A stretch of DNA of 32,384 nucleotides from Kiritimatiellales bacterium. GTDB taxonomy: Bacteria > Verrucomicrobiota > Kiritimatiellia > Kiritimatiellales > Tichowtungiaceae. Location: assembly GCA_037144035.1 (NCBI GenBank), contig JBAWXO010000001.1, positions 1 through 32,384 on the forward strand, read 5' to 3'. Position numbers and translations under genes: made by a program. Position 1 is the stretch's first letter. The number at the start of each line of letters is the position of its first letter. Shown one piece after another: positions 559 through 31,363 of the stretch. Below the pieces are notes generated by a model. The model saw only the letters and a list, made by a program, of their open reading frames with translations. It was not told where the DNA came from and searched no databases.

Positions 559-2607
559 ATGAGCGCCGCATTAAACAGCACTGAAGCACGGAAAGAAATT
601 GAAAAACTGCGTGCTGAAATCGAACGGCACAACCGGCTCTACTACGTCGAGGCCGCCCCGGAGATTTCCGACCGTGAATATGACGCCCTGCTCCATCGCC
701 TCGAAGCCCTCGAAAAGCAGTTTCCCGAACTGGCGACACCCGACAGCCCGACCCGCCGCGTCGGCGGCGAACCGCTCAAAGGCTTTGAGAATGTCCGACA
801 TACTGTGCCGATGATCAGCCTCGCCAACACCTATAACAAAGAGGAACTGGTCGAGTTCGACGGCCGCGTCAGAAAACTGCTCAAGGAAACTCCTTATTCC
901 TACGTCCTTGAGCCGAAGATCGACGGCGTCGCCATTTCACTCCGCTACGAAGACGGCCTGCTCGTTCGCGCCGTCACGCGCGGCGACGGCACAACCGGCG
1001 ATGACGTCACCGCCAATATCCGCACCATCCGCTCCATTCCCCTGCGTCTCCCTGCCGCTCCACCGGCAATTCTGGAAGTGCGTGGCGAGATTTATATGAC
1101 ACGCAAAGGGTTCGCCGCGCTCAACGAGGAACGGCAGGAGGCCGGACTCGAACCGTTCGCCAATCCGCGCAACGCCTGCGCCGGATCGCTCAAACAGCTC
1201 GACCCGCGCATTGTCGCCCAGCGTCCGCTCGACGCTCTCTTCTACGGTCTCGGCGAATGTTCCGCGGATTTCGCGACTCATCAGGAAATGCTCAAAGCAC
1301 TCGCGCATTACGGATTACGGATCACACCGAAACACTGGCCCTGCCCGGAAATTTCGGAAGTCCTTGAAAAACTTGATGTCCTTCAGAATATGCGCCACGA
1401 CTTCCCGTTCGAGATGGACGGCGGCGTCATCAAAGTCAATCAGCGCGATCTTTACGAAACGCTCGGCTCGACCGCCAAGAGCCCGCGCTGGGCTGTCGCT
1501 TACAAATACGAACCGGAGCAGGCCGAAACGCTCTTAAAGGAAATCACCATTCAGATCGGCCGTACCGGCGTGCTGACCCCAGTCGCTGAACTTGAGCCGG
1601 TGCAGCTCGCCGGAACCGTTGTGAAGCGCGCCACGCTTCATAACGAAGACGAAATCAAACGCAAAGATATCCGCGTCGGCGACCGTGTGATCGTTGAAAA
1701 GGCCGGCGAAATTATTCCGGCGGTCGTGCGCGTCGTTACCGAAAAGCGCACCGGCAAAGAAAAACCGTTCGACATGCAGGCCGCCTGCAAAGCGCTTGGC
1801 ATCAACCCGATCAAAAACGAAGGCGAAGTTGCCTGGCGCATCGATGATCTGCACCACCCTGCTATGCTCAAACGCTGGCTGACTCATTTTGCTTCGCGCA
1901 ACGGCATGGATATCGAAGGCCTCGGCGAATCCATCGTTGAGTTACTGGTCGACGCCGGACTGGTTAAAAGTCCCGCCGATCTCTACGCCCTGAAAAAACA
2001 ACAGCTTCTCGGCCTCGAAGGATTCAAGGAGAAGAAGGCTCAAAACCTGATCGACGGCATTGAAGCCAGCAAGGCGCGCCCGTTCGACCGGATTCTTTTC
2101 GCGCTCGGTATCCGCCACGTCGGCAGCGGTTCCGCGCGGGTGCTGGCGCAGAATTTTCCAAACATTGGAAAACTGATGGCTACGGACGTCCAAACCTTGG
2201 AAGAAATCCGCGATATCGGCCCGGTCGTCGGAAAAAGCATCTGCGACTTTTTCCAGACCTCGGAAAACCGGAAGCTGATCGAACGGTTGCAGGCGGCGGG
2301 CGTTAATTTTGAACAAACCGTTCAGGCCGCCAGCGATGAGTTTGCGGGCCTAACCTTTGTTCTGACCGGCACGATGGAAAGCATGAGCCGCGAAGAGGCT
2401 GGCGAACAGATCCGCGCCCGCGGCGGCTCCGTCAGCTCCAGCGTTTCTAAAAACACGTCGTATGTCGTCGCGGGCGAAAAAGCGGGTTCCAAGCTTACAA
2501 AAGCCGAAGAACTCGGCGTGAAGGTTCTCGACGAAGCTGCCTTCCTTAAACTGCTCGGCGGTAAACCCGCTCCGAAACCAAAACCAGGCCAAAGGGAGCT
2601 GTTCTGA
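559..2607 (+). CDS. ligA: NAD-dependent DNA ligase
   Basis: YY/ISDxEYD N-terminal domain, adenylation motif EPKIDG, EVRGE, FANPRNA, OB domain (GRTG), HhH repeats, C-terminal BRCT (FVLTG...[12 protein letters not shown]). Start placed at ATG 559; the ORF is open from 487. Confidence 0.97.
2156..2170. repeat. Iterated palindrome TTCCAA-N3-TTGGAA, perfect copy inside ligA
   Basis: ttccaa aca ttggaa (peptide FPNIGK); near-perfect copies follow at 2188 and 2251. Confidence 0.85.
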
Positions 2608-2669
2608 ACAAAAACTTTCCTATCCGTGCTCATTCGTGTTATTCGTGGGCACTTACAACGAGGTAAATT

Positions 2670-29237: not shown

Positions 29238-30566
29238 TCATTTGAGGAGTCCCAAAAAGGCGGCGATGGGTTCGCCGACACCAGACATGTTGCAGGCGAT
29301 CGGAAGCAATAGCACACCGAGACAGTTCAGGCGGCGCGAGCCGAATAAAACCGGAATCAGGCCGATGCCGGTGGCGACGGTCATAATGAACAGACCGACC
29401 CAGCCTGTGATAACAAAAACGAGCGCGATGATGATGCCGAGCGAGAAGATGGAGATGTGGCGGTAGTCCACCACTTTTATCAGCTTGAGCGTCCATTTGG
29501 TGAGCGGCGACATGAGCAGGAAGGAGACCGCGCCGGAAAGTGCGATGGAGCCGAGCGCGAGATAGTAATCGCCCCAGGTGTGCGGCGTGTAGAGCCCTTT
29601 GATGATCAATGCTCCGCCGCCGCGGGTGAGGAAAAGTCCCGGCGCGAAAAAGAGCATGAGCGCGCCAGTGTAGTAAACAACTTTGGAAACGCCCTGCGAC
29701 ATCATGAAGATACGCTCGTCACGCTGGGCCGTGGCGTGGCCTGCGAGCAGTCCGCCAATCCCGCCGGTGATAACCGGAAAGAAAGCGGCAAAGCCTCCAC
29801 CGATGCCGCCCGCTATGCTGCTGCGCAGCAGGAGGTCGCCGTTGATGTTGAGCGTGTCGCAAACATACTGCTTCGGAACTTCCGTTCCGCTGATGGCGTT
29901 GATCAAGCACCATGGGATGGCGAACAATCCAACGAACGCGGGCATGATGTTTTGAAATGCGTCATCCACGGAAACCAGTGGACGATACAGGAGCAGAAAA
30001 CCGAGCAGGCCAGAGAGAAAGAAAGTGAGCAAACCAGCGCCAAGAGTAGACCAGGCGTCGAAAAATTTACTCCAGCCCGCCGGGCCGCGATTGCCGCCCT
30101 TCGGCCATTCGGTCATGAGAATAAAAGCGATAACGACCCAGAGAATCCAGTGCATGTGCGGATTGAACACGTAGCGGACGACGGGCAGAAACTTCGGCGC
30201 GAACGGGCCGATCAGAAAGACAAGCATGAAGACACCGGCCAAACTGCCTGCACCGATCATCATGGTGCCTTCATAGCCGCGGCCGATCATCAAATATTTC
30301 TGCCCGGGCAACACGGTGAAAATAGCGCTTTCGTCCGGTGCGCCGAGCAGAACAGAGGGAATGGTATTGAGAACGGACCAGCCGGTGACAAGGCCGAGCA
30401 TGAAAGGAATATAAACCTCCGGCATGGCGGCCAGCCCGCCGCCGTGCAGTGAATAGAGGAACAGCGCCGCGAGGCCCATGACGTTATAGATATGCAGGCC
30501 GGGCAGAATGGCCAGGAAACAGGCGAGCACGGTTCCGGCAAGCACCGCCGCCATTGCGGAAATCAT
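29238..30566 (-). CDS. TctA/DUF112-family permease, archaeal-like type
   Basis: ILPGLHIYN, IPSVLLGAPD...VLPGQKYLMIGRGYEG, PAFVGLFAIP, ATGIGLIP...RR..CLG.LL.P; about 12 TM segments; ATGA overlap with the upstream gene. Confidence 0.8.
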   Translation of the reverse strand: MISAMAAVLAGTVLACFLAILPGLHIYNVMGLAALFLYSLHGGGLAAMPEVYIPFMLGLVTGWSVLNTIPSVLLGAPDESAIFTVLPGQKYLMIGRGYEGTMMIGAGSLAGVFMLVFLIGPFAPKFLPVVRYVFNPHMHWILWVVIAFILMTEWPKGGNRGPAGWSKFFDAWSTLGAGLLTFFLSGLLGFLLLYRPLVSVDDAFQNIMPAFVGLFAIPWCLINAISGTEVPKQYVCDTLNINGDLLLRSSIAGGIGGGFAAFFPVITGGIGGLLAGHATAQRDERIFMMSQGVSKVVYYTGALMLFFAPGLFLTRGGGALIIKGLYTPHTWGDYYLALGSIALSGAVSFLLMSPLTKWTLKLIKVVDYRHISIFSLGIIIALVFVITGWVGLFIMTVATGIGLIPVLFGSRRLNCLGVLLLPIACNMSGVGEPIAAFLGLLK

Positions 30567-31363
30567 TTCCCAGACTCCATAACGCGCAGGTCGCCAGCCT
30601 CCCACACTTTAAGCTGAACGGCATCTTTATAGATGCCAACCCGTCCTCGGGCACTGATAAGTTTCCCGGGTATTGGAAGTTTTTTATCCAACCCCTGGAA
30701 AACATCCTCCCAGAAGATAATCACCAGCTCCGCGCCATCCTCCGCAATCGTCAGAGCATAGGGCGCTTTGGATCCGGGGCCGGGCACATCAACGGATTTG
30801 AGCGTGCCGGCCACGGTGACCTGATCGCCCTTGTGCGCGGCGGTCACGGCAGCTAGACGGACACGGGCTTCCTCCGCCGGAACAACGGCAGTACGCTTAC
30901 GGTTCAGGACAAGCTGATTGGCCGACTGGATGCGCAGTTTGGGTGCTTGATCGGCGCTGACGCTGAGACTGCCCGTCACTTCAATCCGGTCACCGCGCCG
31001 CGGAAGTTTCCCAGAAGCTTCAAGCGCCTGAGCCTGCGCCCGCCCGCCCATGACGGTGATTTCCCCGCTGCCGTCTTTTATGTCGAAAACCATGCCGCCG
31101 GATTGGAAGACATAGGCGTCTCGCGTGACCTCGCCCGCCATGCGGACATAGGCGAAGTTCATGGTCGGGGTGATATCACTGACTCGCACGAGCGGAATAT
31201 CGCGGTTCACCGAAAAGAGATAAAGCAGAGCAAGGCCAGCAACGGCCAGCACCAGTGAGGCGTACTGAAGAACCCTGACACGCAAGGGACGCTTCACCTG
31301 CGGCCCGTAAGCTGGATAGTCTTTGCTATTGTTGGATGACAAAACCACGAACAACAAAATCAT
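30563..31363 (-). CDS. Membrane-anchored protein with two OB-fold nucleic-acid-binding domains
   Basis: One N-terminal TM helix, then YVRMAGEV...FDIKDGSGEITV...GDRIEVTG and VTVAGTL...LVIIFW...GKLISARGRVGIYKDAVQL (RPA/tRNA-anticodon-type OB patterns). Exact start uncertain. Confidence 0.75.
   Translation of the reverse strand: MILLFVVLSSNNSKDYPAYGPQVKRPLRVRVLQYASLVLAVAGLALLYLFSVNRDIPLVRVSDITPTMNFAYVRMAGEVTRDAYVFQSGGMVFDIKDGSGEITVMGGRAQAQALEASGKLPRRGDRIEVTGSLSVSADQAPKLRIQSANQLVLNRKRTAVVPAEEARVRLAAVTAAHKGDQVTVAGTLKSVDVPGPGSKAPYALTIAEDGAELVIIFWEDVFQGLDKKLPIPGKLISARGRVGIYKDAVQLKVWEAGDLRVMESGK

Follow-up and report, generated by a model that had tools for sequence, protein, structure and literature searches.

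A gapped palindrome iterated through a housekeeping region

The window analyzed here is a 32,384-nucleotide stretch of contig JBAWXO010000001.1 (assembly GCA_037144035.1) from a Kiritimatiellales bacterium, carrying the housekeeping genes ligA, parB, clpX, clpP, tig, icd, rph, pyrH, frr, and coaBC. Dispersed through and between these genes are copies of a gapped palindrome, TTCCAA-N3-TTGGAA. We describe this apparently undescribed motif as a real genome-wide iterated element, distinguished by long-range helical phasing between its copies. The sites of the window are as follows (encoded peptides in parentheses; PWM, position weight matrix).

559..2607, plus strand: ligA, NAD-dependent DNA ligase (Pfam; start by gene caller), host of the first array
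2156..2265: phased array in the 3' part of ligA; 2156 perfect, 2188 one mismatch, 2251 two mismatches, at offsets 0, +32, and +95 bp (FPNIGK, VQTLEE, FQTSE)
3318..3332: weak site in parB (SVRALEKI), PWM 13.4 bits
4036..4072: two intergenic sites spaced by 22 bp; 4036 weak, 4058 one mismatch
5879..5893: perfect site in clpX (SNDWK)
8854..8868: one-mismatch site upstream of tig
11152..11166: one-mismatch site in the monomeric isocitrate dehydrogenase gene
12133..12147: two-mismatch site, 43 bp past the icd stop
13039..13075: sites at 13039 and 13061, spaced by 22 bp, downstream of the RNase PH gene
15692..15706: one-mismatch site in a cvfB-like gene (FQPLDR)
17235..17249: weak site in an ABC-F ATPase gene, PWM 11.2 bits
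18311..18325: one-mismatch intergenic site
22189..22391: 22189 (intergenic) and 22377 (perfect, phosphomannose isomerase), 188 bp or 18.0 turns apart at 10.45 bp
24772..24817: pair 31 bp apart upstream of pyrH; 24772 weak, 3 bp past the stop of a TPR gene, 24803 one mismatch
26582..26596: site with two mismatches, in coaC (VQTLEK)
27115..27390: perfect pair 31 bp apart in coaB (FQPLEK, FPKVGT) plus a third site at 27376 (230 bp, 22.0 turns)
28405..28419: two-mismatch site in a YdjM-family gene
30664..30700: pair 22 bp apart in an OB-fold gene; 30664 weak, 30686 two mismatches

The five perfect copies claimed in the initial annotation are indeed present, at positions 2156, 5879, 22377, 27115, and 27146, and none of 100 dinucleotide shuffles of the window contains any. 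Its coordinates for one- and two-mismatch copies agree with our scan, which found 21 copies with up to two mismatches where 1.7 are expected, and 13 of the 20 copies that it listed do lie inside genes. Among those it had set apart as degenerate or N4, positions 18202 and 30664 are degenerate as described (weak three-mismatch N3 copies), whereas 12133 is a two-mismatch N3 copy.

The source assembly, referred to below as G000, is a metagenome-assembled genome of 2.4 Mb in 514 contigs, 82% complete and 84% coding as predicted with a purpose-made gene caller. It contains 194 perfect, 362 one-mismatch, and 367 two-mismatch copies. The N3 form alone is enriched, spacers of 0 to 2 and of 4 to 12 nucleotides yielding only 0 to 3 copies each, and TTCCAA-N3-TTGGAA ranks first among all 6-N3-6 palindromes of the genome. 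At a threshold of at least 12 bits, a weight matrix found 856 positions as against 31 in the reversed genome; the motif's information content of 22 bits, derived from sites picked by their consensus and hence inflated, was not used as evidence. The enrichment extends beyond the window and over a codon-preserving null, the coding DNA holding 115 perfect copies compared to 1 to 6 in ten synonymous-codon shuffles. The ligA sites were identical, with zero differences, in contigs of two other sequencing runs (X3 record 12, 2138-2250; X5 record 23, 2108-2328), which excludes an assembly artefact. Overall, these data confirm that the iterated palindrome is real and more extensive than first noted.

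Anatomy and genomic setting of the sites

The full consensus, (T)TTTCCRR-N-S-N-YYGGAA(A), describes a self-reverse-complementary site of 15 to 19 bp. Its TTCC/GGAA core is almost invariant, A-to-G changes at positions 5 and 6 account for 199 of the 362 one-mismatch sites, and the flanks are T/A-rich over 2 to 4 bp and random beyond about 4 bp. The spacer, initially described as free, is constrained: 93% of perfect sites (179 of 192) have C or G at the center. The two arms vary independently of each other (AG/AG combinations 9 versus 11.0 expected, GA/GA 5 versus 5.8), pairing between flanks is at about the shuffle level, and sites following stop codons show neither a bias of G.U over A.C (20 versus 16) nor a U-tail. 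In one of the three coding frames, G.U is favored (93 versus 58, p 0.005), for which codon constraints could be the source. Arms without covariation lead us to reject a hairpin or a repetitive extragenic palindrome (REP) and point to a double-strand site; taken with the fixed spacer, they suggest that the palindrome is read by a dimer. The proposal of a binding site for a dimeric protein thus retains the appropriate geometry, a fixed-spacer palindrome distributed genome-wide and lineage-wide, as a predicted site.

Sixty-three percent of the sites with at most one mismatch (349 of 556) lie in genes, in all three frames. Site density per kilobase is 0.28 in coding DNA and 0.73, 1.27, and 1.93 in tandem, divergent, and convergent spacers, respectively, i.e., three to seven times higher between genes than within them, with no positional preference upstream of genes. 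The impression that the motif resembles neither a regulon nor a REP therefore holds, since its copies are mostly in genes or between convergent genes and appear to originate by substitution (see below). The sites form clusters and are not spaced evenly, their dispersion across contigs being 1.6. There is also an excess just after stop codons: 36 of the 111 intergenic sites within 60 bp of a stop begin at +1 to +4, where 10 are expected. This excess persists in spacers of at least 120 bp (14 versus 3.7) and is weaker in a closed congeneric genome, G019, and in metagenome loci. Using atypical codon usage and low GC content as proxies for horizontal acquisition, we found the density to be lower in presumptively acquired DNA, with 0.10 to 0.14 sites per kb in atypical-codon genes compared to about 0.33, and 0.05 to 0.09 in low-GC contigs compared to 0.25 to 0.29.

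Sites are phased to the DNA helix

The property that we judge most informative was absent from the initial annotation: the copies are spaced at whole turns of the double helix. Inter-site distances peak at 22, 31/32, 42, 52/53, 62/63, 73/74, 84, 94/95, and 105 bp and onward. In G000, 42 pairs are 31 bp apart, 19 are 32 bp apart, and 12 are 22 bp apart, against a random expectation of 0.30 per distance. Three turns (31/32 bp) are strongly preferred, and 22 bp is the shortest common spacing, which would place an upper bound on the footprint of a dimer. The best period is 10.45 bp (bootstrap confidence interval, 10.43 to 10.47; 225 pairs at 40 to 450 bp), and G019 again gives 10.45 bp (10.44 to 10.47; 53 pairs, 280 kb).

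In the pooled data, in which clustered pairs are not fully independent, phase Z scores are 7.7, 6.6, 4.8, 4.7, and 3.8 at 36 to 70, 70 to 130, 130 to 200, 200 to 300, and 300 to 450 bp, falling to 2.2 at 450 to 700 bp and to about 0 further out. Nearest neighbors alone give Z scores of 6.7, 3.8, 3.3 (130 to 250 bp), and 2.1 (250 to 450 bp, weak) with increasing distance, and 0.7 beyond. The phase is present within single genes (Z 8.9), among intergenic sites (Z 3.0), and across gene borders (Z 4.1); isolated half-sites are not in phase (Z -0.1). The masked genome has a general AA/TT periodicity with a peak close to the period of the sites; its amplitude of only about 0.3% is too small to account for their phasing. 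The linkers within G000 arrays are unrelated to one another, and 31/32 is not divisible by 3.

Arrays of 3, 4, 5, 6, and 7 sites number 91, 34, 3, 1, and 2, respectively. A hard limit of four sites per array is only hinted at by these numbers, many of the loci coming from one source. An extended intergenic example in G000 (C22:6433-6772), upstream of a DNA polymerase III alpha-like gene, has five sites at 0, 32, 94, 219, and 324 bp, all within about 1 base of whole turns.

We found no prior description of the motif in the literature searched, which comprised titles and abstract openings; mention elsewhere is possible.

Origin of the sites

Sequence comparisons indicate that coding sites arise by point substitution at tolerant positions, not by insertion. 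The ligA array has four slots, 32, 31, and 32 bp apart and in three reading frames, and shows no indels across 22 congeneric ligA genes. It was built by point changes, both synonymous and nonsynonymous (e.g., PDIE to PNIG and QTPA to QCLE), is strongest in high-count genomes, and is absent from G002, G011, G015, and G017. The third slot (about position 2219, +63), decayed in the window, is occupied in 7 of 21 relatives. Similarly, when coding sites were compared with orthologues in the motif-poor genome G035, of which 2.0 of 2.95 Mb (68%) was read, 150 of 158 aligned sites were ungapped, 13 further sites falling outside the alignments. Identity to these orthologues was 0.40 in the sites, 0.46 in their flanks, and 0.54 overall. 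CoaB homologues are equal in length across the site pair in 115 of 120 cases, the first peptide being FQPLEK in 88, of a Y type in 26, and a single variant in 6; the named matches are from Kiritimatiellales, Tichowtungia aerotolerans (80% identity), or Verrucomicrobia. Four homologues (P0050, P0103, P0051, and P0119) have in-frame insertions of 10 to 21 amino acids at the second site of the pair, which look like translated repeat elements; the 21-residue insertion corresponds to 63 bp, or six turns, and would preserve the phase.

The process has left an imprint on the proteome, FQ.LE occurring 128 times in G000 proteins as against 5 to 8 for its permutations, and the motif biases the protein sequences of the class towards FQxLE, FPxxGK, and SNxWK. 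Sites are also sites in G019 orthologues in 22 of 34 cases (73% identity, third-position identity 0.51), compared to 1 of 134 in the orthologues of G035, suggesting that they are kept, or re-made, at the same tolerant places. Local duplication occurs as well, as indicated by look-alike linkers in some intergenic arrays of other organisms (L315, L317, L327, and L328).

Distribution among lineages, along the chromosome, and in viruses

The motif is confined to the class Kiritimatiellia, yet it is labile and has been lost in many lineages. At least 50 perfect copies are found in 29 of 32 other genomes of the genus (range, 2 to 811) and in 14 of 26 genomes of a second large family (range, 0 to 1190). 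Of 56 genomes sampled from the remaining orders of the class, 13, representing seven families, have 58 to 1345 copies and many have none, and in other classes of the phylum the maximum is 4 (134 genomes). The congener G002, 98% complete, has two perfect copies. In G035, the matrix gave 15 hits versus 3 in the control, with no comparable replacement motif in the 2.0 Mb read. Four genomes, G092 (339), G100 (81), G118, and G135, have few perfect copies and 49 to 339 matches to a relaxed pattern, suggesting a shifted dialect of the motif. A GTDB scan for a perfect phased pair, covering 2 of 64 parts, returned 142 loci; the 80 titles considered were all labeled Kiritimatiellae/-ia/-ales, Lentisphaerae, Verrucomicrobia, Spartobacteria, or unclassified (labels as given).

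Along the closed G019 chromosome, the 226 sites are spread evenly: successive 500-kb segments contain 27, 35, 32, 29, 24, 28, and 30 of them, and the final 383 kb contains 21. The dnaA gene lies at 1.386 Mb; the distribution has no ori or ter bias and gives no support to a chromosomal position like that of matS, SBS, or NBS.

Perfect phased pairs occur in six viral contigs, in some cases amid head and terminase genes. Of 120 viral loci that have a single 17-mer, 105 lack a second strong site. One IMG/VR contig (L195/L197), in our judgment from a Mu-like phage, has seven strong sites in two phased arrays (L195 2970-3046 and 4062-4180) surrounding a small helix-turn-helix (HTH)-like open reading frame (ORF); a PHROGs search with three ORFs gave no match. 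This phage may use its host's binder.

Search for the binding protein

Candidate families were searched in 80 genomes with known motif counts. These were presence tests only, so a universal protein with changed affinity or abundance would escape notice. The initial annotation had suggested profiling genes whose presence follows the motif; among seven candidate families or proteins, none does. HU/IHF was found in all 80 genomes, ComEC in 79, and PilT in 76, the latter two in motif-free genomes as well; the four genomes without a PilT match (G002, G044, G050, and G053) have 2, 34, 1, and 0 perfect copies. HHH_3/ComEA matches, present in 63 genomes and likewise not tracking the motif, are mostly Tex-sized frames. 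Those of ComEA size are patchy and were not found in several motif-rich genomes including G019, where the HHH_3 matches comprise a 783-amino-acid frame, Tex-like in our judgment, and a weak one of 413 amino acids.

Lrp/AsnC (PF01037) occurs in 74 genomes whatever the motif count and was not found in G154, which has 150 copies. A single site precedes the Lrp gene in G000, by 107 bp; at the 30 other loci read, the 300 bp before the gene contain none, and no array lies upstream. MerR_1 was found in 46 genomes and not found in eight rich ones (G083, G226, G089, G106, G121, G199, G235, and G250). A weak MerR_1 match, seen once per genome searched in the order, is an excisionase-type HTH fused to EIIA of the phosphotransferase system (PTS) (G000 C76:575-1231); this protein is also present in motif-poor genomes. 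A 60-amino-acid protein that we judge ribbon-helix-helix (RHH)-like was found in 34 genomes from two families only, motif-rich and motif-poor alike. This RHH-like protein (G000 C11:13325-13504, corresponding to L249:4326-4505, minus strand) is highly conserved, with 1 to 7 copies per genome, and is confined to two Kiritimatiellales families, the query finding none elsewhere in the class.

ParB was rejected as well, having its own canonical parS, 6 to 23 kb from dnaA in G019, G035, and G054 and present also in G000 and G002. The parB gene adjoins ligA in 18 of 27 ligA loci, some of the loci being short; in the window it lies at 2670-3581, following ligA, with no parA alongside. The lineage's parS, TGTTCCACGTGGAACA (G000 C42:3527-3579; G019 1,364,998-1,365,141), shares TTCCA/TGGAA with the arms of the motif, with a gap of 2 bp as opposed to 5 bp, possibly by chance.

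No recurrent neighbor gene was found at 35 loci of low-copy genomes or at 124 metagenome loci beside triple arrays; the few sites of low-copy genomes are at unrelated loci, often still as 31/32-bp pairs. Subtraction of the G035 sequence read (68%) left 1146 of the 2201 G000 proteins without a hit, and inspection by eye of 208 small basic proteins, of 139 that had hits in rich loci, and of part of 401 others revealed no convincing binder. G000 being 82% complete, the binder gene may be absent from the assembly.

Comparison with known systems

Palindromic sites for dimeric chromosome organizers, often inside genes, are familiar from matS/MatP, SBS/SlmA, NBS/Noc, and parS/ParB. Such sites number from 2 to about 70, and their positions favor or avoid ori or ter, whereas the Kiritimatiellia motif has hundreds of evenly spread copies in a lineage with a separate, canonical parS near dnaA. 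The cores of DNA uptake sequences (DUS) and uptake signal sequences (USS) are non-palindromic, and we know of no helical phasing for them. As described in the sources cited, both are present in hundreds of dispersed copies, mostly in genes and at tolerant positions, leave a peptide imprint, and are scarce in atypical genes (PMC2817400, PMC2397512). The Kiritimatiellia motif is equally dispersed, proteome-imprinting, placed at tolerant positions, and scarce in atypical genes, but differs as a clustered, helically phased, gapped palindrome that no uptake gene tracks.

The account of highly iterated palindrome 1 (HIP1) in PMC13756078 is of a palindrome spread by substitution without indels, conserved in coding as well as non-coding DNA, and patchy among lineages; it is a contiguous 8-mer holding methylase sites, for which electrophoretic mobility shift assays detected no binding protein in the work cited. 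The likeness lies in a palindrome spread by substitution without indels, here in ligA, the G035 orthologues, and CoaB. The differences are a bipartite structure of 15 to 19 bp, two candidate methylase sub-sites that are not enriched outside the motif, and phasing at the helical repeat. The resemblance to HIP1 and uptake sequences initially seen is borne out as regards substitution origin, proteome imprint, and scarcity in atypical genes.

Precedents for phased multi-site binding are provided by SeqA, described as requiring same-face sites two to three turns apart (PMC5145175), and by Ss-LrpB, whose boxes are described as 15-bp palindromes with a 3-bp center in regular arrays, bound by one dimer each and with about 100 bp wrapped over three sites (PMC1802622). 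The former recalls the main peaks at 22 and 31/32 bp and the latter the regular arrays, mostly of 3 or 4 sites, seen here. However, SeqA reads a hemimethylated 4-mer, whereas here it is a long palindrome whose copies are themselves in phase, out to about 450 bp. The boxes of Lrp are A/T-centered and located at promoters, unlike the C/G-centered motif, and the class's Lrp gene neither tracks it nor has an upstream array. As a defining trait of each of DUS/USS, HIP1, REP, matS/SBS/NBS/parS, and Lrp and MerR operators is lacking, the motif is not filed under any of them.

A multivalent DNA-binding protein as the proposed explanation

Very probably, a multivalent protein binding double-strand DNA is behind the motif. 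Each palindrome would take one dimer, which would read the half-sites through successive major grooves and cover no more than about 22 bp. Dimers would touch at two to three turns and, when further apart but in phase, bridge or wrap the DNA. The optimum at three turns and the long reach of the phase suggest that one assembly holds several sites on one helix face, whether by side-by-side contact, wrapping, or bridging. The fading of the phase beyond about 450 bp may be due to the twist stiffness of DNA. Each added in-phase site would give slight extra binding, such that weak selection could write sites wherever the protein sequence permits, and sites would decay once the binder, or the need for it, is lost.

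That the job of this putative binder is nucleoid architecture we regard as an even bet. We prefer this reading on account of the palindromic form, clustering, and even spread of the sites, which bear no relation to promoters and which the uptake genes do not track. A bolder version, advanced tentatively and with greater doubt, is a packing code in which dimers on 3 to 4 sites 31.5 bp apart would form a wrapped, nucleosome-like particle and bridge in-phase sites to about 450 bp, rewriting amino acids in hundreds of core proteins and being gained or lost within a genus.

Several observations weigh against an architectural role. G002 is nearly motif-free and the 2.0 Mb of G035 read has no replacement motif of this type, so any such role must be dispensable. 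The lability of the motif, its scarcity in atypical genes, the tolerant positions, and the block-like switching of the CoaB peptide all fit uptake-sequence drive equally well. The excess after stop codons is not predicted by the architecture model, the phase was not seen at 200 to 300 bp in metagenome loci (7 pairs only), and no binder was found among Lrp/AsnC, MerR, HU/IHF, and the RHH-like protein in the 80 genomes.

The alternative closest to these data is a self-recognition signal for DNA uptake or recombination, in which a multivalent receptor, located in a pilus, the periplasm, or the cytoplasm, would prefer fragments with several in-phase sites; biased uptake together with recombination would then fill the genome with sites, a drive of the kind proposed for DUS and USS. 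We consider it unlikely. It would explain the traits shared with DUS and USS, from the hundreds of copies and the FQ.LE imprint to the switching in CoaB, and the 10.45-bp period would suit relaxed linear DNA. The uptake machinery is present (ComEC in 79/80 genomes, PilT in 76/80), the four PilT misses being low-copy genomes; yet ComEC and PilT are also found in motif-free genomes and hence do not track the motif, ComEA-sized HHH_3 matches were not found in several rich genomes, G019 among them, the sites are clustered, and DUS and USS are non-palindromic and not known to be helically phased.

It is improbable that the motif is an RNA-level or transcription-end element, i.e., a hairpin or protein roadblock after stops that shapes 3' ends, the coding copies being by-products. 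The excess at +1 to +4, the maximum density between convergent genes, and the predicted folding of five window sites at -3.9 to -9.0 kcal/mol would all agree with such a role. However, 63% of the sites are coding, compensatory changes, a post-stop G.U bias, and a U-tail are lacking, the window contains no tRNA and no Rfam match, and an RNA hairpin leaves the 10.45-bp phase over 450 bp unexplained.

A methylation/repair ratchet of the kind proposed for HIP1, whereby a methylase and biased repair would turn near-sites into functionless sites, is very improbable. It would account for a palindromic, substitution-spread, lineage-patchy motif, and every perfect copy does include CCA-N5-TGG and CC-N7-GG. 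But neither sub-site is enriched in the motif-masked G000 genome: CCA-N5-TGG occurs 530 times (neighboring spacers, 319 to 674), which gives no support to the PflMI-type methyltransferase link initially envisaged, and CC-N7-GG, with 9461 occurrences, is the lowest of seven spacers. Moreover, the common A-to-G variant at position 5 destroys CCA-N5-TGG, and phasing between sites would not be expected from a ratchet.

That the motif is a REP-like or mobile short repeat, propagated through a transposase or tandem duplication, is hardly tenable. The intergenic density, three to seven times that of coding DNA, and the look-alike linkers in arrays of some other organisms would be in its favor, but a REP-like origin of the coding copies is largely refuted by the alignments, in which these appear as substitutions (150/158 ungapped). 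Nor are REPs or bacterial interspersed mosaic elements (BIMEs) matched by 63% of copies in genes, flanks random past about 4 bp, unrelated G000 linkers, and arms without compensatory changes, and the genome's own REP-like doublet, CCCCTCC-N3-GGAGGGG, is different, its flanks being conserved and its spacing fixed at 29 bp. Operators of an ordinary global transcription factor of, e.g., the MerR/CueR type, are scarcely credible: the TTCC-N7-GGAA core is common to the motif and to the CueR core given as CCTTCC-N7-GGAAGG in PMC8169799, but the sites have T/A-tract flanks, lie mostly in genes or between convergent genes with no upstream preference, share no locus among low-copy genomes, and are not tracked by MerR_1, which was not found in eight rich genomes and whose shared weak match is also present in motif-poor ones.

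DUS, USS, and HIP1 are the few bacterial motifs known to pervade coding sequence throughout a genome, and the driving force of HIP1 is still argued. To our knowledge, a sharp helical phase between sites is known in none of them. A 10.45-bp phase over about 40 turns would record directly in the genome that one protein holds several sites simultaneously, and it makes the choice between chromosome structure and molecular drive testable, given congeners with 2 to 811 copies and the existence of cultured Kiritimatiellales. A nucleoid protein as the binder would make this a case of bacterial chromatin programmed by sequence; with an uptake receptor, it would be a multivalent system of self-recognition, based on a palindrome, within the Planctomycetes-Verrucomicrobia-Chlamydiae (PVC) group.

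Other features of the window

The RNase PH gene (13109-13891) is on the minus strand, and a 297-amino-acid plus-strand ORF over it is a shadow. A second repeat, the CCCCTCC-N3-GGAGGGG element mentioned above, is present at 15279-15372 as an inverted doublet between convergent genes. It has 66 core copies in G000, with conserved flanks and often 29 bp apart, and looks like a classic REP. Finally, the window includes two type II toxin-antitoxin pairs (4112-4614 and 9091-9736), one consisting of an addiction-module antitoxin and a RelE-like ORF that we judge to be the toxin, and the other of the HI1419/HI1420 type.

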